NCBI GenBank assembly: GCA_903908285.1
Contig: CAIVRH010000014.1
Location: 57,991 to 121,990, forward strand
DNA length: 64,000 bases
DNA from: an uncultured candidate division Zixibacteria bacterium
Lineage (GTDB): Bacteria; Zixibacteria; MSB-5A5; SM1-73
Reading direction: 5' to 3'
Shown: positions 2,427-56,226 of the stretch, piece by piece
How positions within the stretch are numbered: position 1 is the first letter of the stretch
How the letters are laid out: each line of letters opens with the position of its first letter
Notes under the pieces: generated by a model
What the model was told of the DNA's origin: nothing
Databases searched by the model: none
The model's input: only the letters and a program-made list of their open reading frames with translations
Made by a program: the position numbers and the translations under genes

Positions 2427-3806
2427 TTAGAATCTCAAAATCGATTTCAGCACCGGGATGGCGAAATTGACGGCAAAGGCAAAAGATATCAAATACATCA
2501 GCCAGTGAACCTCTCTTCCTTTTCCGCTCATCAGCTTGATCAAAGTGAAAGTGATGAAACCGAAGCCGATGCCGTTGGTTATGGAATTGGTCAAAGGCAT
2601 GACGATCATGATCAGAAAAGCGGGAAAAGCCTCTTCAAATCTCTCGAACGGGAATTCTTTTAAGGTGGAAATCATCAGAAAGCCGACGATTATCAGAGCC
2701 GGGGCGGTTGCCTGTTTGGGTACCACCCCCGCAATGGGAGAAAGAAACATGGAGAGGAGAAAGAGGAACCCCACCACTATCACGCTGAGCCCCGACCTGC
2801 CTCCGGCTGAGATTCCGGCGGCACTCTCGATATAAGTGGTAACCGAGCTGGCGGAGCAGGCGCCGCCGGCGACCGCCGAGAGAGAATCCACCAGAAGCAC
2901 CCGGTTAATCCGCGGGAGCCTTCCCTCGGAATCCAAAAACTTTGCCTCACCCCCCAACCCGATCACCGTCCCCAGGGTATCGAAAAAATCGGAAAGCATG
3001 ACCGAGAAGATCAATATCCCGGCGCTTACTACCCCTAATCTGGAGATGGCGCCAAAATCGAATCTTCCTATTTTGGAGAAATCCGGGAGGGTTAATAGGG
3101 TGGTGGGGAAGCGGGCAGTATCGGGACCAGAAAAAGCAGAAAGCCCGGATGCATAATTGATCAGGATAGCCAAAACAGTAGAACCCAATATACCGATCAA
3201 CAGCGCCCCCCTAACCCGTACCTTAATGAGAATAGCGGTCAGCAGAAGACCGAAAATCGCCACCACCACCGCCAGGTTATCGAACTTGCCCAAAGTTATC
3301 AAGGTAGCATCACTTTTCTGCACAAACCCGGCGTCAACCAGGCCGATGAATGCGATGAAAAGGCCTATCCCCACGGAGATGGCTTGCTTTAGAGAGAGCG
3401 GGATGGCGTTCATCACCGCCTCTCTGAATCCGGTGACAACCAGGATAGTGATTATTATTCCCTCCAAAACGATTACTCCCATAGCCGACGGCCAGGAGAG
3501 ACCCATCCCCACCACCATCTGATAAGCCACGATAGCATTCAAACCCAGTCCCGGAGCAAGAGCAAAGGGATAATTGGTAAATAATCCCATGGCGATGGAC
3601 ATAATGCCTGCAGCCAGACAGGTGGCAGTTAGGGCTGCAGATATAGGAAGACCTTTACCCAGCCAATCTGGATTACCGACCAGACCCAGAATATTGGGAT
3701 TGAGAAAAATGATATATGACATGGTCAGGAATGTAGTTATTCCTGCCAACACCTCGGTTCGAACATTTGTTCTCAGATCATTTAATTTGAAGTAATGATT
3801 CAGCAT
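2427..3806 (-). CDS. NCS2-family purine (adenine/guanine/hypoxanthine) permease, AzgA/PurP-like
   Basis: N-terminal signature YFKLNDLRTNVRTEVLAGITTFLTMSYIIFLNP and multi-TM hydrophobic profile. Start chosen at MLNHYFKL, which has a GGAGGG Shine-Dalgarno 7 nt upstream. Confidence 0.8.
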   Translation of the reverse strand: MLNHYFKLNDLRTNVRTEVLAGITTFLTMSYIIFLNPNILGLVGNPDWLGKGLPISAALTATCLAAGIMSIAMGLFTNYPFALAPGLGLNAIVAYQMVVGMGLSWPSAMGVIVLEGIIITILVVTGFREAVMNAIPLSLKQAISVGIGLFIAFIGLVDAGFVQKSDATLITLGKFDNLAVVVAIFGLLLTAILIKVRVRGALLIGILGSTVLAILINYASGLSAFSGPDTARFPTTLLTLPDFSKIGRFDFGAISRLGVVSAGILIFSVMLSDFFDTLGTVIGLGGEAKFLDSEGRLPRINRVLLVDSLSAVAGGACSASSVTTYIESAAGISAGGRSGLSVIVVGFLFLLSMFLSPIAGVVPKQATAPALIIVGFLMISTLKEFPFERFEEAFPAFLIMIVMPLTNSITNGIGFGFITFTLIKLMSGKGREVHWLMYLISFAFAVNFAIPVLKSILRF

Positions 3807-4892: not shown

Positions 4893-6674
4893 ATGAGAAA
4901 GATCGCAATAACCATTGTTCTTTTGCTTTGCCCTATTTATTCCTTAGCTGATACCCACTATGTCTCTCCTCATGGCAATAACACTCCACCTTACACCTCG
5001 TGGGCAACCGCGGCGGATTCCATTCAAAAGGGGATAAATGCTTCTTCTTCCGGTGACACGATCAAAGTAGGAGAAGGGACTTACAGAGAGACTATCACGA
5101 TGATTCCGGGAATAATTTTACTGGGGAGCGGCATGGATGTTTGTACCATTTATCCGGGGAACCTGAGTGTTCGGGATATAGTTTTTGGTGCGGATAGCGC
5201 TGATATTGAATATTTTCACATAAAAGGATGGCAACCAGGTCGAACGGAATTTTGTACTGGTATTAGAAGTGCTGTCGACTCCAAGTTGAAAAGGATATCC
5301 AACAACAAAATTACCAACTGCGATGACGGTATTTATATGGATTGGGTGAATACGGAAGTTTCAAATAATATTATCATGAGTAACGAAGTTGGAATTGATC
5401 TTTTCATAATGTATACCGGTTTAATCATCAACAATACCATATCCCAAAGTAACTTGGGAATAAATTTGTGGAGCACAGCATCCCCTAAAATAATCAAGAA
5501 TGTCATTACCAACACCACTGATAAAGCGATCGCAGGAGAATTCACTGACTCTATGTTCTTTGAGAACAATCTGGTAATAGTAGGTAAACATTATGGTATT
5601 GCCCTGGATAGTTATGGCGGGTTCAAAAGGGCTCCTATAAGGAATAATACGCTAATAGGTGATACTACCGGTATTGGAGGAGGATATTTTCCACAGGTAG
5701 TAGGAATTGAAGACTTCAGCAATGAGATCAAAAACAACATAATATCTAAAGGCTACTATGGGATTGCGACTTCAAATTATCATGGTTACAACAGTAATTC
5801 ACAGGTTTCCTATAACGATTTATGGAATAATGTGATCAATTATGATGTGTATGGTTCTGCCAGCATTGATACCTCGCTGGGTGGTAATATTTATCTGGAT
5901 CCCATGTTTGTGGGAGGAGATGATTATCATCTGCAATATGGCTCTCCTTGCATTGATGCGGGTGATCCAAATATCAAAGACCCCGATTCTTCCAGATCGG
6001 ATATGGGCTGTTATGGGGGAGCTTATGGAGAAACTTACTCCTATTTGGATTATCCACCAAAGCCACCCGACAGCTTATCTGCTGTATCAGAATCAACCAT
6101 AATTATCCTCAACTGGAAACCCAATACTGAATCTGATCTTTCTCATTACTTAGTCTATAAGGATACCATAGCTGGATTCATTCCTGATACTTTCAAAATT
6201 GTCGGGAATATCCCCAAAGATAGCTCCGTCTTCAGAGATTATGATTTTGTCTTAGGAAAGACTTATTATTATCGGGTAGCTGCATGGGATATTATCGGCC
6301 ACAAGAGTGAATATTCGGATGAGCTGGAAGTCGAAGCAACTTCAGTGAATGAACATATCGAACAAGAGAATCGACCCCCCATGTATCAATTATCTCAAAA
6401 CTATCCCAATCCTTTCAATTCTGAGACAGTGATCTGGTATTTCTTACCGGATGTGGGTTATCAACCGGCAGAGGTTGAGATTACCATCTATAACCTTTTA
6501 GGTAAGAGAGTAAGAACTCTGGTCAATGAAAGAGAATATCCGGGGGAACATAAAGCTCGATGGGATGCAAAGGACGATTCAGAAAATGAGGCAGCATCAG
6601 GAATATACTTTTATCGTTTGAAGGTAAGCGGCTTGGAATTAGTCAAGGCAAAGAAGATGGTACTACTAAAATGA
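4893..6674 (+). CDS. Secreted right-handed parallel beta-helix (pectate-lyase/NosD-fold) protein with FN3-like module and T9SS C-terminal sorting domain
   Basis: Signal peptide MRKIAITIVLLLCPIYSLA after a GGGAGG Shine-Dalgarno. Beta-helix repeats (NNIIMSNEVGIDL, NNTISQSNLGINLW) and DPMFVGGDDYHLQYGSPCIDAGDP. C-terminus LSQNYPNPFNSETVIWYF...IYNLLGKRVRTLVNE...GIYFYRLKVSG...KKMVLLK matches the Por-secretion tail (T9SS type A CTD). Confidence 0.8.
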   Translation: MRKIAITIVLLLCPIYSLADTHYVSPHGNNTPPYTSWATAADSIQKGINASSSGDTIKVGEGTYRETITMIPGIILLGSGMDVCTIYPGNLSVRDIVFGADSADIEYFHIKGWQPGRTEFCTGIRSAVDSKLKRISNNKITNCDDGIYMDWVNTEVSNNIIMSNEVGIDLFIMYTGLIINNTISQSNLGINLWSTASPKIIKNVITNTTDKAIAGEFTDSMFFENNLVIVGKHYGIALDSYGGFKRAPIRNNTLIGDTTGIGGGYFPQVVGIEDFSNEIKNNIISKGYYGIATSNYHGYNSNSQVSYNDLWNNVINYDVYGSASIDTSLGGNIYLDPMFVGGDDYHLQYGSPCIDAGDPNIKDPDSSRSDMGCYGGAYGETYSYLDYPPKPPDSLSAVSESTIIILNWKPNTESDLSHYLVYKDTIAGFIPDTFKIVGNIPKDSSVFRDYDFVLGKTYYYRVAAWDIIGHKSEYSDELEVEATSVNEHIEQENRPPMYQLSQNYPNPFNSETVIWYFLPDVGYQPAEVEITIYNLLGKRVRTLVNEREYPGEHKARWDAKDDSENEAASGIYFYRLKVSGLELVKAKKMVLLK

Positions 6675-47962: not shown

Positions 47963-49276
47963 ATGAGTAAGAAAGTATACATACAGACCTTTGGCTGCCA
48001 GATGAACGTCTACGATTCGGAACGTTTAATGGGCTTGCTGAATGCCGAAGGACATGCCATAACCAGGAATGAAAAGGAAGCGGACGTCATCGTTTTAAAC
48101 ACCTGTTCGGTCAGGGAAAAGGCGGAAAGGCGGGCTTTGGGTCGACTTTCGGATTTTTATCGATACAAGCAGAACAATCCTGAGGTTATGCTGGTTGTGG
48201 CTGGATGCATGGCGCAAAGAAAGGGAAAGGATTTACTAAAGGAGCAGCCTTACCTGGATTTAGTTTTGGGTCCGGACCAGATATTTAAACTTCCCCAATT
48301 GATCGGCAATCACCGGATTACCAACCGTGTGGAGACGTACGCTTCGCGGGAGGATTTCGAATCTAAGGACATCTGGGAAAAGGAGATGCTGCCCAAACGA
48401 AAGACCCCCTACACCTCGTTCGTTGCCATCTCCCGGGGATGTGATAATTTTTGTTCCTATTGCGTGGTTCCCTATGTCCGGGGACCGGAAAGAAACCGCC
48501 CATTTGACCAGATAATCCGTGAGGTTCAGCAAATTGCCGAATCAGGAGCTAAGGAAGTATGCTTGTTGGGGCAAAATGTCAACTCCTACCAGTGCAAAGG
48601 AAAGGATTTTGCCGATCTGCTACGAATGGTTAACGACCAGACCAGCATCGATTGGATTCACTTCATGACCTCACATCCCAAGGATTTATCCGGCAAATTG
48701 ATCGATGAAATTGCTTCCCTCCCGAAAGTTTGCGAACATATTCATCTGCCTCTGCAATCGGGTTCCGATAGGATTCTTGAGATTATGAACCGGGGATATA
48801 ATTCCGCGGATTATCTGAAGCGAGTAGAGCGAATCAAAGAGAAAGTTGAAAACGTAAGCCTCACCACCGACTTGATCGTCGGTTTTCCCTCGGAAAGCGA
48901 AGATGATTTCCGGAAGACATTGGAAATGATGGAGAAGGTTGAATTCGATGCTGCTTTCTTGTTTCGCTATTCGGTTAGAGAGGGAACCCAGGCGGCATCT
49001 TTAAAGGACGATGTGCCGGAGGAAGAAAAGCTCAAGCGACTTTATACCCTAATCCATCTGCAAAAAGAGATTTCCAAGAAGAGGAATCAAAGATTTTTAG
49101 GCAAAATCCTGGAGGTTTTAATTGACGGAAAAAGCAGAAGGGATAAAAATAAATGGAAAGGAAAAGCCCGAACCAATCAAACGGTGATCGTCGACTCAAA
49201 AGAGGATATTTTGGGGAAGATCGTCCCTGTGAAAATCAGCGAGGTGGACAGTTTCACACTATTCGGAAAACTGTAA
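47963..49276 (+). CDS. miaB: tRNA-i6A37 methylthiotransferase MiaB (radical SAM MTTase with TRAM domain)
   Basis: KVYIQTFGCQMNVYDSERLMGLL (N-terminal cluster). CDNFCSYCVVPYVRGPERNRP (radical SAM CxxxCxxC). Family-like C-terminus ending FTLFGKL. Confidence 0.85.
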   Translation: MSKKVYIQTFGCQMNVYDSERLMGLLNAEGHAITRNEKEADVIVLNTCSVREKAERRALGRLSDFYRYKQNNPEVMLVVAGCMAQRKGKDLLKEQPYLDLVLGPDQIFKLPQLIGNHRITNRVETYASREDFESKDIWEKEMLPKRKTPYTSFVAISRGCDNFCSYCVVPYVRGPERNRPFDQIIREVQQIAESGAKEVCLLGQNVNSYQCKGKDFADLLRMVNDQTSIDWIHFMTSHPKDLSGKLIDEIASLPKVCEHIHLPLQSGSDRILEIMNRGYNSADYLKRVERIKEKVENVSLTTDLIVGFPSESEDDFRKTLEMMEKVEFDAAFLFRYSVREGTQAASLKDDVPEEEKLKRLYTLIHLQKEISKKRNQRFLGKILEVLIDGKSRRDKNKWKGKARTNQTVIVDSKEDILGKIVPVKISEVDSFTLFGKL

Positions 49277-49334
49277 AAAGTAAACAATACACCGTAAACG
49301 CCATGTGATTACGGCTAGGGGAAACGAGAGTGAT

Positions 49335-50411
49335 ATGCAAAAAATATTCGAAATTGCGGTTAAACCATTGATTGACTATTTCAAAATACGACACTGGGTC
49401 ATCTTTCAGATCGATCCTTTAAGTACAAAATGGAAAATGGCTTATACATCAGGTTTTTCGAAAGATTCAATCCCGCATTTACAGGAATTGAAAGATACGG
49501 CAGATTTCTTTAAACGGATAGTGGATAAAAGAATTCCTCAAATGGTAAACGATATCGCAGAAACCGAAAGGGGATTGTTTCCATTGGTGGAAGTGGAAAA
49601 GGTTAATTCCTTGATTGCCGTTCCTCTCTGCTCTAAAGAAAATTTGTGCGGAATTCTGATCGCATTTAGTCCGGAGAAGTCCAGGTTCAATCAAGAGGAT
49701 GCAAGAATCATCGCTCTCTTTGGCCATCAAATCGTAGAGATGCTGGATTTCTTCTCCCAACTATTAGGTGAAAACACGGATGAGCTGTTGGTTCAAATAT
49801 TGGGGACTTTGGAACTTTTGAATTTCAGGTATAAGAACAGAGAAGTTGTCCCGGCAGCCGAGATTTTATCCGCACATGAGCGTTTTAAGAACAGGATTCT
49901 GTCATCTATAGCCGGTATGGAACCGTGCTATTTGAACCGGGCTCTTAAGCCGGAGATGCCGAAAAACGAACCGATAAAACTGCCCTCAGGAGAGGAGTTG
50001 AATATAGAAGAGGTGATTACCATTCAAGGAAAAAAGAATAACCCTTCCCCTGTCAAAAATATCCTGATCATAGACGACGAGCCGCTGATAACCGAGCTAT
50101 TAGCCAGTATTTTAGAGAGATTAAACTACAAATCCAAAGTAGCTACCTATGGAAAGCAGGGTTTGGAGATGTTTGAGAAGGAAGCTTTTGATCTGGTGAT
50201 AACCGATCTGGGGATGCCGGATATATCAGGCTGGGACGTCTCCAAAATAGTGAAGCAAAAAAAGCCGGAAGTTCCGGTCATAATCATCACCGGTTGGGGA
50301 TTAGATCCGGATCCCAACAAGATGAAGGACTCGAAAGTCGACCAGATCATCACAAAGCCATTCCAGATCGACCAATTGGAAAAGACCATAAGAGACCTAT
50401 TGGAAAAGTGA
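49335..50411 (+). CDS. GAF-domain protein with C-terminal response-regulator receiver (REC) domain
   Basis: C-terminal REC: NILIIDDEPLITELLASIL...FDLVITDLGMPDISGWDV...VIIITGW...QIITKPF (phospho-acceptor Asp in DLVITDLGMP). The N-terminal approximately 200 aa are GAF-like. Confidence 0.65.
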   Translation: MQKIFEIAVKPLIDYFKIRHWVIFQIDPLSTKWKMAYTSGFSKDSIPHLQELKDTADFFKRIVDKRIPQMVNDIAETERGLFPLVEVEKVNSLIAVPLCSKENLCGILIAFSPEKSRFNQEDARIIALFGHQIVEMLDFFSQLLGENTDELLVQILGTLELLNFRYKNREVVPAAEILSAHERFKNRILSSIAGMEPCYLNRALKPEMPKNEPIKLPSGEELNIEEVITIQGKKNNPSPVKNILIIDDEPLITELLASILERLNYKSKVATYGKQGLEMFEKEAFDLVITDLGMPDISGWDVSKIVKQKKPEVPVIIITGWGLDPDPNKMKDSKVDQIITKPFQIDQLEKTIRDLLEK

Positions 50412-50559
50412 GTATTTTTGTTCAAGGGATAGGAAATTTAGTGCGCAGGCTGGTCACCTTGCCCACCATTAAAATAATGCGCCGGGGCTGGGAGCCTCGG
50501 CTACGGAAATGACAGCATTATTAAGATTATCGTGAGTGAAGATTAGAGGGGAGAAAATT

Positions 50560-51528
50560 ATGCTTAGAACCACGGGAGTGGGGAATTACCCCAAAATAAC
50601 TGAGGACAAAACCTGCCTTGGCCTCCGGCAAGCGAGAAATCAATTCGATCAGAAGAAAATCTCCGCTGAGGAACTGGAACAAGCTTATCAAGAGACCATC
50701 AAAAGGGTAATAAGAGAGCAGGAGGAAACGGGTTTGGATTTGATCACTGATGGACAGATCCGCTGGGATGATCCAGTTACACCTTTTGCCAAACACATTC
50801 ATAGCTTTGAAATTGGCGGGCTTCTGAGATTCTTTGATAACAATGTCTATTACCGCCGACCGATCATCAAATCAAAACTGTCTTTTAAGGAATATTTCGT
50901 AGTCGATGAATTTAAATTTGCTAAAGCTTCATCCAAAAAGGAAATCAAACCGGTTATTGTTGGTGCCTTTACCTTTGCTCAATTATCCTTGGATGAATTC
51001 TATCATGACGAGGAGAAGCTGGTTCTCGAATTAGCCGGTATTCTGCACAAAGAAGCGGAAAAGTTGGAACAGGAGGGGGCGAAGATAATTCAGATAGATG
51101 AACCATCCTTATGTTTTTATCCGGAGAAACTCAAGCTGGTGCACGAGTCTTTGAAAATAATCACCCAGGATATAAAAGCTAAGTTTGCCCTGTATCTTTA
51201 TTTCGGATCGATCAGAAAACTTGCCCCCGAATTATTCGATCTTCCGGTGGATATACTGGGTGTGGATGTGGTAAGCAAAAGCGAGAATTTGGATTTGCTA
51301 TTGGAATACGATGGAAAAAAGGAGATCGGTTTAGGTTGTGTGGATGCGCGGGATACCAAGATGGAGACCGAATCTGAGCTTTTGACAATTTTTGAGAAGA
51401 TTACAAAGGTAATCCCTTCAGAGAAAATCTATATTAATCCTTCCTGCGGACTCGAATTCCTCCCGCATGCTGAAGCGCAGAAAAAGCTTAAGAATATGGT
51501 GCAGGCGGTAAGGAAGTTCAACCGATAA
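50560..51528 (+). CDS. Short cobalamin-independent methionine-synthase-like (MetE C-terminal-domain/UroD-fold family) protein
   Basis: MLRTTGVGNYPKITE resembles the MetE LPTTTIGSFPRT motif. Also IQIDEPSL and INPSCGLEFLPH (zinc-ligand region). Length about 320 aa, as in archaeal-type MetE. Confidence 0.55.
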   Translation: MLRTTGVGNYPKITEDKTCLGLRQARNQFDQKKISAEELEQAYQETIKRVIREQEETGLDLITDGQIRWDDPVTPFAKHIHSFEIGGLLRFFDNNVYYRRPIIKSKLSFKEYFVVDEFKFAKASSKKEIKPVIVGAFTFAQLSLDEFYHDEEKLVLELAGILHKEAEKLEQEGAKIIQIDEPSLCFYPEKLKLVHESLKIITQDIKAKFALYLYFGSIRKLAPELFDLPVDILGVDVVSKSENLDLLLEYDGKKEIGLGCVDARDTKMETESELLTIFEKITKVIPSEKIYINPSCGLEFLPHAEAQKKLKNMVQAVRKFNR

Positions 51529-51671
51529 CAGTCAACGGTCATTTGACTCAACTGAGATGAAGCACCCAGAAAGGTGCCCGTCTGGACGGATACAACGGAT
51601 AAAATCTTGAAGATAAACTATGACCGTGAAACTGGTTGTATTTACTTTCGATTAATTCTGCTTAATATGCC

Positions 51672-51699
51672 TTGACAAAGATATTATAAAATATATAAT
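51672..51699 (+). promoter_or_regulatory. Sigma70-type promoter TTGACA-N16-TATAAT upstream of the toxin-antitoxin operon
   Basis: cTTGACAaagatattataaaataTATAATa. Confidence 0.55.
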
Positions 51700-51741
51700 A
51701 TTTTTTAAGATAATAGAATGAGTAAGGAGGTGGAAATTTTT

Positions 51742-51945
51742 ATGATTTCAGTTAAGGAAAAATATGTAGTGGATGAAAAAGGAAAACGGGTAGGAATAAT
51801 GCTCGATATGAAAGAGTACCAGAAGATACTTCTGGCTTTAGAGGAACTTGATTCGATTCGGGCATACGACCGGGCAAAATCATCGAAAGAAAAACCAGTC
51901 CCTTTCAGTCGGGCAGTTATTCAGATAGAGAGAAAACGAAAATGA
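51742..51945 (+). CDS. Type II antitoxin (small, helical; Phd/RelB-like)
   Basis: AAGGAGG Shine-Dalgarno 11 nt upstream. 67 aa. Overlaps the toxin start by 4 nt (ATGA). ELDSIRAYDRAKSSKEKPVPFSRAV is typical of an antitoxin C-terminus. Confidence 0.6.
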   Translation: MISVKEKYVVDEKGKRVGIMLDMKEYQKILLALEELDSIRAYDRAKSSKEKPVPFSRAVIQIERKRK

Positions 51946-52178
51946 GATACTCTCTTTTTATCCTCCCTAGAGCAGTTAAGGAACTAGAGAATCTTGAAAA
52001 AAGGGAATATCAAAAAGTCAAACAAGCCATTTTACAACTCGCTTCTAATTCAAGACCATCCGGCTGCTTGAAATTGACCGGACGCGAGGGGTGGAAAATT
52101 CGAGTGGGTAACTATCGAGTGGTTTACGAGATCAACGATTCAGAAAAGAGACTTATTGTTCTTGACGTTGGACACTGA
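51942..52178 (+). CDS. Type II toxin, RelE/ParE family
   Basis: 78 aa. WKIRVGNYRVVYEINDSEKRLIVLDVGH matches the RelE/ParE C-terminal signature (GNYRIIYxIdDxxkxVyVLrIGHR). Confidence 0.75.
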   Translation: MRYSLFILPRAVKELENLEKREYQKVKQAILQLASNSRPSGCLKLTGREGWKIRVGNYRVVYEINDSEKRLIVLDVGH

Positions 52179-52253
52179 CGGGATGTATATAGATAGGGCG
52201 GGAATTGGTCAGACCATCTCTCGCTTATCACAAGTGCCTAATCCGGTGGAAAT

Positions 52254-52337
52254 GAATTCTTCCTTCATGCTAAAGAACAAAAAAGCTTAAGGATATGGTA
52301 CAGACGGTGAGAGAGTTCAATCGATAGCAGTCAACGG
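52254..52337 (+). repeat. Diverged (about 85% identity) duplicate of the 3' end of the MetE-like gene (copy of 51454..51538, including its stop codon)
   Basis: gaattcttccttcatgctaaagaacaaaaaagcttaaggatatggtacagacggtgagagagttcaatcgatagcagtcaacgg aligns with gaattcctcccgcatgctgaagcgcagaaaaagcttaagaatatggtgcaggcggtaaggaagttcaaccgataacagtcaacgg. Confidence 0.7.
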
Positions 52338-52514
52338 ATGTAACAGATTAAACGGATTAAAACCTTTTGTATAGCTCTTCAGCATTAGTTCTGGGAGAAC
52401 TTCAGGTGAATCCTCCAGGATGAACGCTTACCCTGGAATCATAATTGCTTCGGGGTTAGATTATCCCGCAACGATTAGTGACCTACTCATATTCCATAAT
52501 CTTTAGAATCCCCC

Positions 52515-53504
52515 TCACCCTGCCCTCTCCCCTTGGGGAGAGGGATTTTTGACCAACATCGCTGCACCGATAAAGCCGGCATCGTTACCCAATTTGGCTT
52601 TAACGACTTTCAGGTTTTTTGTGGCAGAGGGAAAAGCCCTTCTTTTCACTTCTTTTTCGATTCGACGAATGAAGCTTTCTCCACCCTGAGACACTCCTCC
52701 GCCAACTACCACTATCTGCGGGTTCAAAAGATTAACCGCGCTGGCAATGCCCGCCCCTAAATAGATACAGGCTTGGTTGATTACTTCAGTAGCAAAAATG
52801 TCACCCTTATTTTCGGCCTTAAAGATGATTTCTGTGGTTAGTAGATTCAAATCCCCTTTAATTAATCTATGGATAATGGATTTTTTGTTACTTAGAAGAA
52901 GCTCTTTAGTATCTTTTACAATGGCGGGTGCCGAAGCATACATTTCCAGGCAGCCGATGCCGCCACAATTGCATTTTCTCCCCTCGTAGCAGATAGTCAT
53001 GTGTCCCAATTCCGCTCCCGCATAATCCGACCCGTGAAATAATTCCCCATTTAAAATTATCCCACCGCCGATTCCTGTACCCAAAGTCAAGCAGAGAACG
53101 TCCCGGTATCCTTTCGCCGCACCGAATTTATGCTCCGCCAAAGCCATGACATTGGCGTCATTATCCGCATAAATGGGAGAATCAAAATAGACGGAGAGCC
53201 ATTTCTTAAGATTTACATTCAACATCTGGGGAAGATTGGGACAGGAGCCTTCGATTTTACCGGTCAAAAGGTTCACCGTCCCGGGTGAACCTACTCCGAT
53301 CCCCCCTATGTTGATCTTATTCTTTTTGGCAAGGGCTAACGTTTGTTCGATGGCCTTAATTATGTTACCCAGGATGGCATCCCGACCCAGATGCGTTTGC
53401 GCCGGCAATAAGCCCTTGTGGATAATCTCCCCCTTTGCAGATACAATGCCGAATTTGATGTTGGTCCCCCCCAAATCGACACCAATGTAATAATCTTTGA
53501 TCAT
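52515..53504 (-). CDS. ROK-family sugar kinase (glucokinase-like)
   Basis: N-terminal YIGVDLGGTNIKFGIV ATP-binding motif. ROK zinc motif CNCGGIGCLEMYAS. Also GTGIGGGIILNGELFHG. Confidence 0.8.
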   Translation of the reverse strand: MIKDYYIGVDLGGTNIKFGIVSAKGEIIHKGLLPAQTHLGRDAILGNIIKAIEQTLALAKKNKINIGGIGVGSPGTVNLLTGKIEGSCPNLPQMLNVNLKKWLSVYFDSPIYADNDANVMALAEHKFGAAKGYRDVLCLTLGTGIGGGIILNGELFHGSDYAGAELGHMTICYEGRKCNCGGIGCLEMYASAPAIVKDTKELLLSNKKSIIHRLIKGDLNLLTTEIIFKAENKGDIFATEVINQACIYLGAGIASAVNLLNPQIVVVGGGVSQGGESFIRRIEKEVKRRAFPSATKNLKVVKAKLGNDAGFIGAAMLVKNPSPQGERAG

Positions 53505-53585
53505 CTGTCTTGTTTTTAAACCTCACCCCCTGATTCCCCCTCTCCACAATTGTGGAGAGGGGGACCAAGGGGGAAAGGTCAAACT

Positions 53586-54782
53586 CTATCTCTTGTTGTA
53601 AGTTTCTATCCCTTTAGCCAAGCATCTCATGGCTTTTTTCAGATCATCCACGTTGAGGACGTAAGCGATGCGGGCTTCGTCCTCGCCTTTACCCGGTGTG
53701 GCATAAAGGCCCGGTCCCGGTGCGATCATGGTGGTTTCACCATCTAAATTGAAATCGGTCAGCATCCAGCGCGCAAAATCTTCGATGTCTTTCACCGGAA
53801 GCTTAGCCATGATGTAGAAGGCACCGCTGGGTTTAAGGCACACCACTCCCGGAATCTTCATCAATTCGTCATAGACGGTATCTCTCCGTCTCTTGTATTC
53901 CGCCGCAATTTTCTCGAAATAATCATCCTGGATAACCAAAGCTGCGGTTGCTCCAACCTGCTCTATGGTGGGAGAGCATAATCTGGACTGAGCCAGCTTC
54001 AAAACCGCCGCCATCACCTCATCATTTTTGGAGACTAAGCAACCGACTCGAGCCCCGCAGGCGCTGTATCTTTTGGACATTGAATCCAAAAGTATGGCCC
54101 GATCCTCTACCCCCGGGATATGCATGATACTGGTGTGTTTTCCCTCATAGATGAACTCGCGGTAGACCTCATCGGACAAAACAAAGAGATCGTGCTCCTG
54201 GCAGATCCGGGCGATCATCTCCATCTCCTGGCGGGTGTACACTGTGCCGGTGGGATTATTAGGAGAGCAGATCGATATAGCCCGGGTTTTGGCAGTGATC
54301 TTCTCCACTATCTTCTCTTGGGGGGGCAGGTGAAAGCCATTCTCCGCCTGGAGGGTTATGGGGACTAATTGCATATCCGCCATTTTGGCAAAACTGTTGT
54401 AGTTGTTATAGAACGGCTCGAATATGATGATCTCATCTCCCACATCCGCCACGCAGATCATGGAAAAGATCATGGCTTCGCTCCCTCCGGTGGTCACCTG
54501 GATGTTCTTTTCCTCCACCAGGATGTTTCTCCTTTTGTAATACTGCACCAAGCCGGTAATGAATTTCTGCAATCCCTTGGAATTGCCGTAAGCTAAAACC
54601 TCTTCATTGAAATTGCGGACAGCATCCATGAACTCATGGGGGGTGGGGATATCCGGTTGTCCTATGTTCAAATGATATATCTTAATACCTTTCTTTTTTG
54701 CCGCATCAGCCAAGGGGACCAGTTTCCTTATGGGTGATGCCGGCATCTCTTTTGCTCTTTGCGAAATCTTTGGGGTTGCCAT
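53586..54782 (-). CDS. Pyridoxal-phosphate-dependent aminotransferase, class I (aspartate/aromatic aminotransferase-like)
   Basis: Start at MATPKISQRAKEM after an AAAGGAGA Shine-Dalgarno. ASPIRKL, SPNNPTGTVY, and SMSKRYSACGARVG (PLP lysine). Confidence 0.8.
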   Translation of the reverse strand: MATPKISQRAKEMPASPIRKLVPLADAAKKKGIKIYHLNIGQPDIPTPHEFMDAVRNFNEEVLAYGNSKGLQKFITGLVQYYKRRNILVEEKNIQVTTGGSEAMIFSMICVADVGDEIIIFEPFYNNYNSFAKMADMQLVPITLQAENGFHLPPQEKIVEKITAKTRAISICSPNNPTGTVYTRQEMEMIARICQEHDLFVLSDEVYREFIYEGKHTSIMHIPGVEDRAILLDSMSKRYSACGARVGCLVSKNDEVMAAVLKLAQSRLCSPTIEQVGATAALVIQDDYFEKIAAEYKRRRDTVYDELMKIPGVVCLKPSGAFYIMAKLPVKDIEDFARWMLTDFNLDGETTMIAPGPGLYATPGKGEDEARIAYVLNVDDLKKAMRCLAKGIETYNKR

Positions 54783-55007
54783 TTTATCTCCTTTGTTCAT
54801 GCACAAATTACCCTTTCCTTGAGACAATAAAGCAGATTGAGGGGGGTTTGTCAAATTTAAAATCAGCTTTATGTGCCTGAGCGGTTGGCTTGTATCTTTG
54901 TTACAGCCGTAAAGTAATGACTGTCTGTCTTTTGGTTTTGATACCTGCGGATAAAGCTAATGAACTCCGGCATGTTGTCCAAAAAGTATGTTATTTGAAA
55001 ATATGGC

Positions 55008-55036
55008 TTGACAAAACGCATTATACTATCTATACT
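55008..55036 (+). promoter_or_regulatory. Sigma70-type promoter TTGACA-N17-TATACT
   Basis: cTTGACAaaacgcattatactatcTATACTa, upstream of ATG 55075. Confidence 0.5.
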
Positions 55037-55074
55037 ATAAGTGGAAATTACATTATTTAAACAGGGATTTAGCT

Positions 55075-56226
55075 ATGAGACGGATAATCTTTCTGCTTGT
55101 AATTGTCTTTTTGCTGTGGTGGATCGATCCGGCTTGGGCAGCTGCCTATCAAGCCGGAGATGCCAACGGTGACAGCGTAGTGGACATTGGGGACGTGGTG
55201 TATGAGATCAACTATCTTTTCAGGAGCGGACCCTCGCCGGTGTTCTACGAATGCGGCGATCCTACCGGGGACTGCGTAATCAACGTGGGTGACGTGGTAT
55301 ACCTGATCAACTATCTCTTCAAAGCGGGCACAACCCCGCAGATAGTGGAATGCGGCTGGAGTGAGCCGGTCAACCTGGGATCACCTATCAATAGTACTAG
55401 AGGTGATGGTTCAATATCTTTTTCATTTAACTTTAAGAAACTTGTATTAGTCTCAGACAGAACTGGAACACATGGTGATGAAGACATCTGGTATATTGTG
55501 AGGGATAGTGTATCACAAGCATGGTCACAACCGATAAATTGCGGCAACAACATAAACACGGACATTCGAGATCCGTATCCCTGTATCTCCGGAGACGGGA
55601 ATAAGATTTATTTTCTCTCCTGGAACAGGCCCGGGGGGTATGGAGGGTGGGATATTTGGGTTTCAAGCTGGGACAGCTCTGCCGGAATTTGGGGTGTGCC
55701 CGAGAACCTGGGAGCGAACATTAATTCCGGAGGGGTCTGGACTCCGTTCGTAACCTTGGATGATACCAAGCTGTATTTCTCCTCCACCCGCTATCCGGGG
55801 GGGATATTCGTCTCGGAGAGAAGTGGAGGTGACTGGGGTGTTCCGGTCTGGCTGGGTCCTAACGTGAATATGTATTTTAACGAAGAAGATCCCAGCGTAA
55901 CAGTGGACAACCAGACGCTTTATTTTGTCCGGTGGGACTTGGAAGACTGCGGAGAAGGATTGCCGCACATCTGGGTTTCCTACTGGACCGGGACGGAATG
56001 GGGACCTTCTTATATGCTGCCATCCGGCATAAACTATCCATGTGCCGGCGCATCGGACCCCTGGATAACGCCGGACGGATCCAAGCTTTATTTCAGCGCA
56101 GGAATAAGACCGGGCGATATGGGTTTGGGTGATATTTGGATGTCTGAGCGGATTCCCGTAGAGAAAGGTAAGAGATTCATTAACCGCGATCAGAAAGTAA
56201 TAATAAGCAGTGGAACCGACCGATAG
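55075..56226 (+). CDS. Secreted protein with N-terminal type-I dockerin followed by TolB-like PD40 beta-propeller
   Basis: Signal peptide MRRIIFLLVIVFLLWWIDPAWA. GDANGDSVVDIGDVVYEINYLFRSGPSP...GDPTGDCVINVGDVVYLINYLFKAGTTP. PD40-like repeats (ISGDGNKIYF, TLDDTKLYF, ITPDGSKLYF). Confidence 0.7.
   Translation: MRRIIFLLVIVFLLWWIDPAWAAAYQAGDANGDSVVDIGDVVYEINYLFRSGPSPVFYECGDPTGDCVINVGDVVYLINYLFKAGTTPQIVECGWSEPVNLGSPINSTRGDGSISFSFNFKKLVLVSDRTGTHGDEDIWYIVRDSVSQAWSQPINCGNNINTDIRDPYPCISGDGNKIYFLSWNRPGGYGGWDIWVSSWDSSAGIWGVPENLGANINSGGVWTPFVTLDDTKLYFSSTRYPGGIFVSERSGGDWGVPVWLGPNVNMYFNEEDPSVTVDNQTLYFVRWDLEDCGEGLPHIWVSYWTGTEWGPSYMLPSGINYPCAGASDPWITPDGSKLYFSAGIRPGDMGLGDIWMSERIPVEKGKRFINRDQKVIISSGTDR

Follow-up and report, generated by a model that had tools for sequence, protein, structure and literature searches.

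A RelBE-type toxin-antitoxin cassette between two diverged copies of a MetE-like gene end in an uncultured Zixibacterium

How does a toxin-antitoxin (TA) pair come to stand between two unequal copies of the end of its neighbouring gene? The question is raised by a 64-kb stretch of contig CAIVRH010000014.1, from an uncultured Zixibacteria bacterium (this whole stretch is called the window below), in which a MetE-like gene is followed by a RelBE-type cassette, then by a second, altered copy of the MetE-like 3' end, and finally by the convergent gene of a ROK-family kinase. An earlier examination of the letters (the sequence-only reading) had taken this layout as the footprint of cassette acquisition. 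We compared the locus with about 30 related Zixibacteria loci, designated by L-numbers. The account that we favour, with some reserve, is that the cassette was acquired horizontally by a homology-dependent route which duplicated its target, and that the toxin was truncated later.

Extent and decay of the duplicated gene end

The two copies of the repeat lie in the same orientation at 51454-51538 (85 nt) and 52254-52337 (84 nt), with 715 nt between them. They agree at 71 of 85 aligned positions with a single 1-nt deletion, and their local score of 46 compares with 11.0 +/- 1.2 (maximum 18) in 200 shuffles, which bears out the identity of about 85% given by the sequence-only reading. A repeat search returned a gap-free core at 51481-51538 / 52280-52337 with 86% identity; after 16% divergence the longest identical run is 12 nt. 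Copy 1 consists of the last 75 nt of the MetE-like gene, with its stop TAA at 51526-51528 included as had been reported, and of the 10 following nucleotides. Copy 2 no longer encodes the MetE C-terminus in frame, also in agreement with that reading: it gives EFFLHAKEQKSLRIWYRR followed by a stop in one frame and KKLKDMVQTVREFNR followed by a stop in another.

Comparison with related spacers shows that the duplication is longer than 85 nt and measures about 120-155 nt. On the left, an nhmmer profile of MetE 3' ends stretches copy 2 to about 52242 (E = 1e-10). On the right, 51572-51608, which follows copy 1, aligns with the L157 spacer at its positions 38-76 (score 56, shuffle maximum 26), and the sequence that follows copy 2 (52330-52375) matches the L077 spacer directly 3' of the stop (score 37, shuffle maximum 30). 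When the two flanks are compared directly beyond the 10 post-stop nucleotides, CAGTCAACGG, no significant homology is found (score 21, reached by 90 of 500 shuffles); their homology is shown by bridging through the single-copy spacers of L157 and L077. The flank of copy 2 runs on collinear with the ROK-proximal spacer of L157 and L071, and the distance of 188 nt from the pseudo-stop of the second unit to ROK is consistent with the geometry of sites that lack the cassette. The roughly 80 nt of spacer included in the duplication had been missed by the sequence-only reading, as had the spacer hotspot and the loss of the toxin C-terminus described below. The layout is thus gene, unit A, insert of about 645 nt, unit B, native spacer and ROK, with the following features:

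50560-51528, forward strand: intact MetE-like gene, single-domain, cobalamin-independent methionine-synthase-like, 322 aa (Pfam Meth_synt_2, 4e-44, full length)
51442-51608, forward strand: duplicated unit A, the last 75-87 nt of the MetE-like gene and about 80 nt of native spacer with a hairpin-bearing segment (alignment with unit B, match to L157, five-way alignment)
51609-52253, forward strand: inserted segment of about 645 nt with promoter, antitoxin and toxin, followed by a 3' tail of about 49 nt, without homologue in the empty sites L157, L071, L159, L005 and L010
51672-51699, forward strand: putative sigma-70-type promoter, TTGACA-16-TATAAT, 12/12 matches, a consensus match only
51742-51945, forward strand: RelB-like antitoxin gene, 67 aa, full length (PF18506, 27.8 bits for a cut-off of 27, marginal)
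51942-52178, forward strand: RelE/ParE toxin gene, 78 aa, ending at a premature TGA at 52176-52178 (PF05016, 38.2 bits for a cut-off of 23)
52179-52204, forward strand: residual in-frame codons RDVYR and stop of the ancestral toxin C-terminus, now untranslated (translation GH-stop-RDVYR-stop)
52242-52375, forward strand: duplicated unit B, a decayed MetE-like 3' end with pseudo-stop TAG at 52325-52327 and the start of the native spacer (nhmmer, L077 flank)
52376-52514, forward strand: native spacer running on to the ROK gene, collinear with the ROK-proximal spacers of L157 and L071
52515-53504, reverse strand: ROK-family kinase gene, which is conserved and borders the variable spacer on the right (Pfam ROK, 2e-68; synteny across loci)

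The 15 positions at which the copies differ (14 substitutions and the 1-nt deletion) were polarised with six outgroups. All six outgroups side with copy 1 at six non-synonymous positions, and four of them do so at a seventh (Leu to Phe); seven non-synonymous changes, among them a Pro to Leu change in the invariant LPHA motif, are thus derived in copy 2, and so is the frameshift. The synonymous differences are divided over both copies. By this polarisation, copy 2 is a decaying pseudo-3' end which has clearly lost its coding constraint. The Nei-Gojobori estimates between the copies are 0.44 for pS and 0.12 for pN, and the pS of the window MetE gene against cassette-free sisters is 0.41-0.43 (0.41 for L157). 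The units also differ by the spacer that they carry, unit A being of the hairpin-bearing L157 type and unit B of the hairpin-less L077 type. The high pS and the different spacer types make us lean towards the joining of two alleles that had already diverged.

The short hairpin concerned, which contains CCGTCTGGAC, was observed in several spacers (L157 5986-6045, window 51565-51590, L002 3320-3345, L073 5295-5320); it is present in unit A, absent from unit B and occurs once only in the 64-kb window.

A different origin of copy 2, as the remnant of a tandem MetE paralogue, was rejected: the two copies are 84% identical and have the 10 post-stop nucleotides in common, whereas the paralogues are about 35% identical at the protein level. 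Such a tandem paralogue follows the MetE-like gene in more distant Zixibacteria, Omnitrophota and Actinomycetota (L013-L040, L094-L116; e.g. L013 7000-7938), and no second MetE-like paralogue is present at the locus in the clade of the window. In L017 the tandem pair is followed by a 609-aa open reading frame (ORF), the sequence of which suggests a putative fusion of homocysteine-methyltransferase and MTHFR-like parts. An apparent perfect repeat of 95 nt in the same locus proved to be a run of masked N.

The cassette, its truncated toxin and its distribution

All the elements that the sequence-only reading had placed between the copies were recovered: the consensus promoter, the antitoxin gene, the toxin gene and their overlap by ATGA, the two genes being co-oriented. 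They are the only sizeable ORFs on the cassette strand of the insert; the other ORFs listed for it are one of 43 aa in antisense and one of 44 aa which overlaps the toxin end. Neither the ends of the insert nor the sequence downstream of the toxin yielded inverted repeats. From the promoter through the ancestral toxin stop, the insert is homologous to the cassettes of L004, L117 and L073, in which the TA pair is also conserved. The window antitoxin is equal in length to those of L004 and L117 and 80-81% identical to them, and the toxins are 68-69% identical. With a dN/dS of 0.07-0.15 for the antitoxin and 0.07-0.24 for the cassette overall, the pair behaves as an accessory module kept under selection.

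By family profiles and gene arrangement, the cassette is assigned to the RelBE-type type II modules. It shares with them a small antitoxin gene upstream of a small toxin gene, the ATGA overlap and a strong predicted promoter of its own, as well as a patchy distribution of its family, at loci which change between genomes. The PDB matches of the toxin are RelE-family proteins, down to E = 1.7e-10, and include 2KHE, Rv2866 of M. tuberculosis, aRelE of P. horikoshii and RelE of E. coli; for the antitoxin, the sequence search gave no relative with a solved structure.

The window toxin departs from these modules by its end, being six residues short and lacking the conserved HRRDVYR tail. The TGA at 52176-52178 takes the place of the first Arg of this tail, so that the protein stops at GH, and the untranslated stretch 52179-52204 is identical to the corresponding ends in L117, L004 and L073. 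Full-length homologues make up 37 of the 41 toxin hits (83-92 aa, mostly 84), and GHRRDVYR closes nearly all of those that were aligned; the RelE-family toxins nearest among solved structures (2KHE, Rv2866) have this tail too. The conserved C-terminal segment, where the active-site residues of RelE are located, is thus not found in the window toxin. The corresponding C-terminal part of E. coli RelE contains Tyr87 and Arg81, the latter proposed as the general acid (PMC5027501); a search on Arg85 of aRelE found nothing in the literature that was covered. Loss of the C-terminal RRDVYR probably disables or weakens the toxin. With the surrounding codons intact and both genes under long-term purifying selection, the truncation appears recent. 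The 78-aa form is found on 11 contigs. The truncation by TGA is a new observation of the present analysis.

Empty sites, in which the MetE-like gene is directly followed by the ROK gene, were proposed by the sequence-only reading as a check, and they were found in the relatives nearest to the window, whose MetE-like protein is 85-86% identical. The spacer measures about 175 nt in L157, the closest relative with 86% MetE identity, and about 50 nt in L159; in L071/L072 and in an 84-kb contig of P0004 (MetE 85% identical) it measures 107 nt. Among more distant relatives, empty sites of 159 nt and 113 nt are present in L005 and L010.

Of the loci compared, only three lineages carry the cassette between MetE and ROK, namely the window, L004 and L117. 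In the MetE tree these genomes belong to three different subclades, each with a cassette-free sister, and L004 differs from its close relative L007 by a clean presence/absence of about 850 nt corresponding to the cassette. The distance of the cassette from the MetE stop and the surrounding sequence differ in each lineage; in L004 and L117 it stands elsewhere in the spacer, without MetE 3' copies. The bin with the empty L010 site also holds, at an unrelated locus (L073), a cassette 74% identical. Between L004 and L117 the cassette has a pS of 0.26-0.35 where MetE has 0.62, and comparison of the window with either of them gives 0.49-0.56 for the cassette and 0.68-0.82 for MetE. A cassette pS lower than that of the adjacent host gene points to horizontal spread. 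Taken together, the empty sites, the scattered distribution in non-sister lineages and the lower synonymous divergence uphold the earlier claim that the TA pair is an add-on and not ancestral, and support its description as an accessory module that would move between lineages into a variable spacer.

Two further repeats were observed at related loci. The cassette of L117 is flanked by a direct repeat of about 45 nt (4997-5040 / 5689-5733, 73% identity), whose score was reached by 1 of 500 shuffles, and the L158 spacer holds a single-copy counterpart of it. In addition, an independent lineage without TA genes carries a second MetE-like 3' duplication, at 4894-4969 / 5046-5122 in L118 and with the same structure at 2952-3027 / 3105-3180 in L002. 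This duplicate is 76 nt long, its copies are 77 nt apart, and the second copy is in frame with mostly synonymous differences (dN/dS 0.07). A spacer of the L001/L009/L091 type comes after the proximal copy, and the native L117-type terminator after the distal one. The left edge of this duplicate falls within about 2-10 nt of that of the window duplicate. In a scan of 137 loci with a MetE-like gene, duplicates of the MetE-like 3' end were found in these two lineages only (window and L118/L002). Duplication of the upstream gene end as a general trait of the cassette family was rejected, nothing of the kind being seen in L004, L073 and L074.

How the cassette may have entered

In the scenario that we favour, a cassette of about 645 nt with its own promoter, antitoxin and toxin would have entered the short, hypervariable spacer that separates the MetE-like gene from the convergent ROK gene. 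The insertion would have doubled about 120-155 nt of target, i.e. the last 75-87 nt of the gene and the first 80 nt or so of the spacer. Unit A would preserve the functional 3' end of the intact gene, while unit B, stranded between the toxin and the native spacer, would have decayed afterwards into a frameshifted pseudo-end. The most likely route would be a fragment from a related Zixibacterium which carried the cassette together with a piece of the same locus. Entry may have been by a single (Campbell-type) crossover between a circular form of this fragment and the chromosome, in the segment common to both, or by recombination of a linear form, homologous at one end and illegitimate at the other, from a relative that already had the cassette behind MetE; no recombinase encoded by the element would be involved. 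The pair would long have been an ordinary type II module with both genes under purifying selection, until a recent point mutation to TGA took off the C-terminal RRDVYR of the toxin.

This scenario finds a parallel in Campbell-type integration, known for instance from suicide plasmids. As expected for such an event, the insert is flanked by a same-orientation duplication of one contiguous segment with native outer sides: unit A runs on from the gene and unit B into the native spacer towards ROK, and both are homologous to a segment present in single copy in L157 and L077. As in Campbell-type integration also, the repeat of about 120-155 nt includes a gene end and no recombinase gene is present. 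In E. coli, single crossover of a circular molecule gave duplications of 109-950 bp of a homologous gene end (PMC3240628). The window differs in that the circular intermediate and its origin are hypothetical, and in that the 16% divergence and the indels hide the crossover point. Homology-facilitated illegitimate recombination offers a second parallel, the new DNA being continuous on one side with a conserved gene (a possible homologous anchor) and joining abruptly inside the gene 3' end on the other. However, its classic outcome is a deletion in the recipient and not a duplication (PMC3240628), and no breakpoint is detectable in the MetE-like gene of the window. Homology-guided spread fits the occurrence of the cassette at the same locus in non-sister lineages, the repeat of about 45 nt in L117 and the MetE 3' duplicate of L118/L002; the in-frame, synonymous-biased second copy of the latter is consistent with recombination of allele versus allele.

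Several observations weigh against this scenario. Statistically, two alleles and one diverged duplication are not told apart by the 6 synonymous and 7 non-synonymous differences and the 1 frameshift, and the hairpin difference between the units could be a later insertion or deletion. With 16% divergence between the repeats, the junctions are no longer readable base by base. No donor was found, the best non-self toxin being 74% identical and the best foreign cassette 74-81%. No recombination breakpoint emerged when identity was followed along the MetE gene in a sliding window, a result which is uninformative. The L117 repeat is borderline, and part of it resembles, by eye, the sequence 3' of the toxin in L073 and L004, so that it may belong to the cassette and not to the target. 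Finally, the L004 cassette has no flanking repeat at all.

The most serious competitor, which we judge less probable but far from negligible, is a purely local event, in which break-and-repair or a template switch copied about 150 nt of the resident target and the copies, identical at first, then drifted apart, with purifying selection acting on the proximal one and neutral change in the distal one, without any foreign MetE allele. All seven non-synonymous differences and the frameshift are indeed derived in copy 2, copy 1 corresponding to the family consensus. Both copies have CGA as terminal Arg codon, where the sister loci have AGA (L157) and GGA (L071), and both have the 10 post-stop nucleotides CAGTCAACGG, which most relatives do not have, L077 (CTGTCAACGG) and L011 being near. 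The counts fit as well: with only 13 substitutions there is no power to separate the two cases, and the hairpin may be a later indel, which is why duplication followed by divergence stays a serious rival. Against it, the pS of 0.44 between the copies matches that of the window against its empty-site sisters, the spacer types of the two copies differ, no known mechanism autonomous to a cassette yields target duplications of 120-155 nt, and the presence of the cassette at the same locus in three non-sister lineages is left unexplained. Of what the sequence-only reading proposed, the acquisition footprint stands, and both mechanisms that it named, a target duplication which later diverged and recombination with a foreign allele, are compatible with the data.

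The remaining explanations meet more severe difficulties. The last 80 nt or so of the MetE-like gene could be the att site of a site-specific element, of which the integrase and most of the cargo were later deleted, leaving the TA pair, a typical stabilising module, between attL and attR. As in elements that integrate into a gene 3' end and provide a replacement end, direct repeats of this end flank accessory DNA and the proximal copy reconstitutes an intact gene; the L118/L002 duplicate, which starts within about 2-10 nt of the same gene position, and the defence-like cargo of the hotspot would fit too. However, no integrase was found between the window repeats or in the lists of gap ORFs from about 20 related loci (ten of them scanned with Pfam), the insert is only about 645 nt, the repeat reaches some 80 nt into non-coding spacer with an identical core of at most 12 nt, the L004 and L117 cassettes stand at other spacer positions without MetE 3' copies, and only two lineages of 137 loci have the duplicate, which makes this origin improbable. 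We consider it more improbable still that the cassette was ancestral to the whole clade and repeatedly lost, the duplication being an unrelated rearrangement. The same two flanking genes in three lineages and protein identities (antitoxin 80-81%, toxin 68-69%) which resemble those of the flanking genes speak for such an ancestry; a cassette-free sister for each cassette-bearing lineage, a stop distance and surroundings that differ in each of them, a cassette pS well under that of the host gene and the exact bracketing of the cassette by the duplication speak against it. We give hardly any credence to an assembly artefact, in which two strain variants of the MetE 3' region would have been chained into one contig. 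Related strains do occur in the sample (P0004-type contigs come from the same study), and the L002 duplicate lies on a short co-assembly contig. But copy 2, which is 5'-truncated, frameshifted and rich in derived non-synonymous changes, is not a functional strain allele, the structure of L002 recurs in the 367-kb contig L118, and the locus lies within contigs of 204-250 kb. The same gene spacing in a 203-kb contig of a second assembly, ERZ1426812, and the 78-aa toxin on 11 contigs likewise make an artefact unlikely.

The findings also argue against two classes of mobile DNA. Transposons and insertion sequences are recognized by a transposase, terminal inverted repeats and a target duplication of about 2-15 bp; here neither a transposase nor inverted repeats were found, and the duplication (85 to about 155 nt) is too long. 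An integron cassette is not supported either: no attC or inverted repeat is present 3' of the toxin, the ORFs listed for 48000-56000 include no integrase, and instead of an array there is a single cassette with a housekeeping gene on each side.

A broader and rather doubtful generalization of the favoured scenario may be formulated. TA cassettes of about 650 nt without recombinase would move among the genomes of the clade with a piece of their neighbourhood and re-insert by homologous single crossover at the MetE-ROK spacer, leaving long, diverged repeats, which measure 120-155 nt in the window and some 45 nt in L117. If so, the nearly coincident left edges in the window and L118 would point to the conserved GAATT(C/T), within codons for Cys-Gly-Leu-Glu-Phe, as a place where recombination or fragments preferentially end. 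There is no support for the idea that the GAATTC at the left edge is the end of a restriction fragment, the window showing no avoidance of this site (30 occurrences for 35.6 expected).

The surrounding locus and what it illustrates

The locus belongs to an uncultured Zixibacterium of which a second record, ERZ18628254 scaffold_3 (ENA, 250 kb), is identical to the window across 8,969 nt. All close homologues of the window genes come from Candidatus Zixiibacteriota bins, and the MetE-like protein has 816 homologues, the nearest in Zixibacteria. The gene order in the window is MiaB-like, GAF/response-regulator, MetE-like, a spacer of 986 nt, convergent ROK kinase and aminotransferase. This order (MiaB, GAF regulator, MetE-like, gap, ROK, aminotransferase) is conserved in the 30 or so related loci, and the gap itself is not. 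It spans 50 nt to 5.9 kb (L001-L011, L077-L091, L117, L118), with a cargo that differs in nearly every lineage:

L001, L003, L078, L081: unidentified 302-aa protein
L006, L008, L087: NHL-repeat secreted protein
L009: 500-aa protein
L117, L077: HEPN and Hypoth_Ymh proteins
L003, L118, L084, L011: block of SDR, methyltransferase and other genes

Judging from this gene content, the MetE-ROK spacer is a general hotspot for variable genes. The C-terminus of the MetE-like protein itself is replaced or extended in several relatives (L003, L006; L158 3283-3297), where it reads ..KKFNGLKTIS, ..GGEKEVWFKTSEESL or ..KKFREQVSH, which indicates that variable DNA abuts or overwrites the stop and that rearrangement breakpoints cluster at the very end of the gene.

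An Rfam scan of 50300-52700 found no family. The 11-mer CCGTCTGGACG, present in several spacers, was considered as a genome-wide repeat and rejected; it occurs once in the window and is thus no dispersed element here. Beside the ROK gene, G+C-rich hairpins with the pattern CCCTCTCC..GGAGAGGG are found repeatedly (window 52523-52544 and 53520-53579; spacers of L004, L007 and L117). One of them overlaps the listed ROK stop and resembles a bidirectional terminator, and another forms a palindrome with 33-nt arms between the ROK and aminotransferase genes. These hairpins may constitute a REP-like repeat family.

The event described here is of an ordinary and well-documented kind, the entry of an accessory cassette into a variable spot, and it leaves the knowledge of TA biology unchanged. 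Its interest lies in being a clean natural example of a minimal TA module that entered a chromosome without a mobility gene, for which the empty, filled and scarred versions of one site are all available in related uncultured genomes. The locus may thus serve for teaching and as a benchmark for insertion footprints and variable hotspots in Zixibacteria, with a long target duplication which is not of the transposon type, a cassette whose spread outpaces the divergence of its hosts, and a toxin caught just after the loss of its tail.

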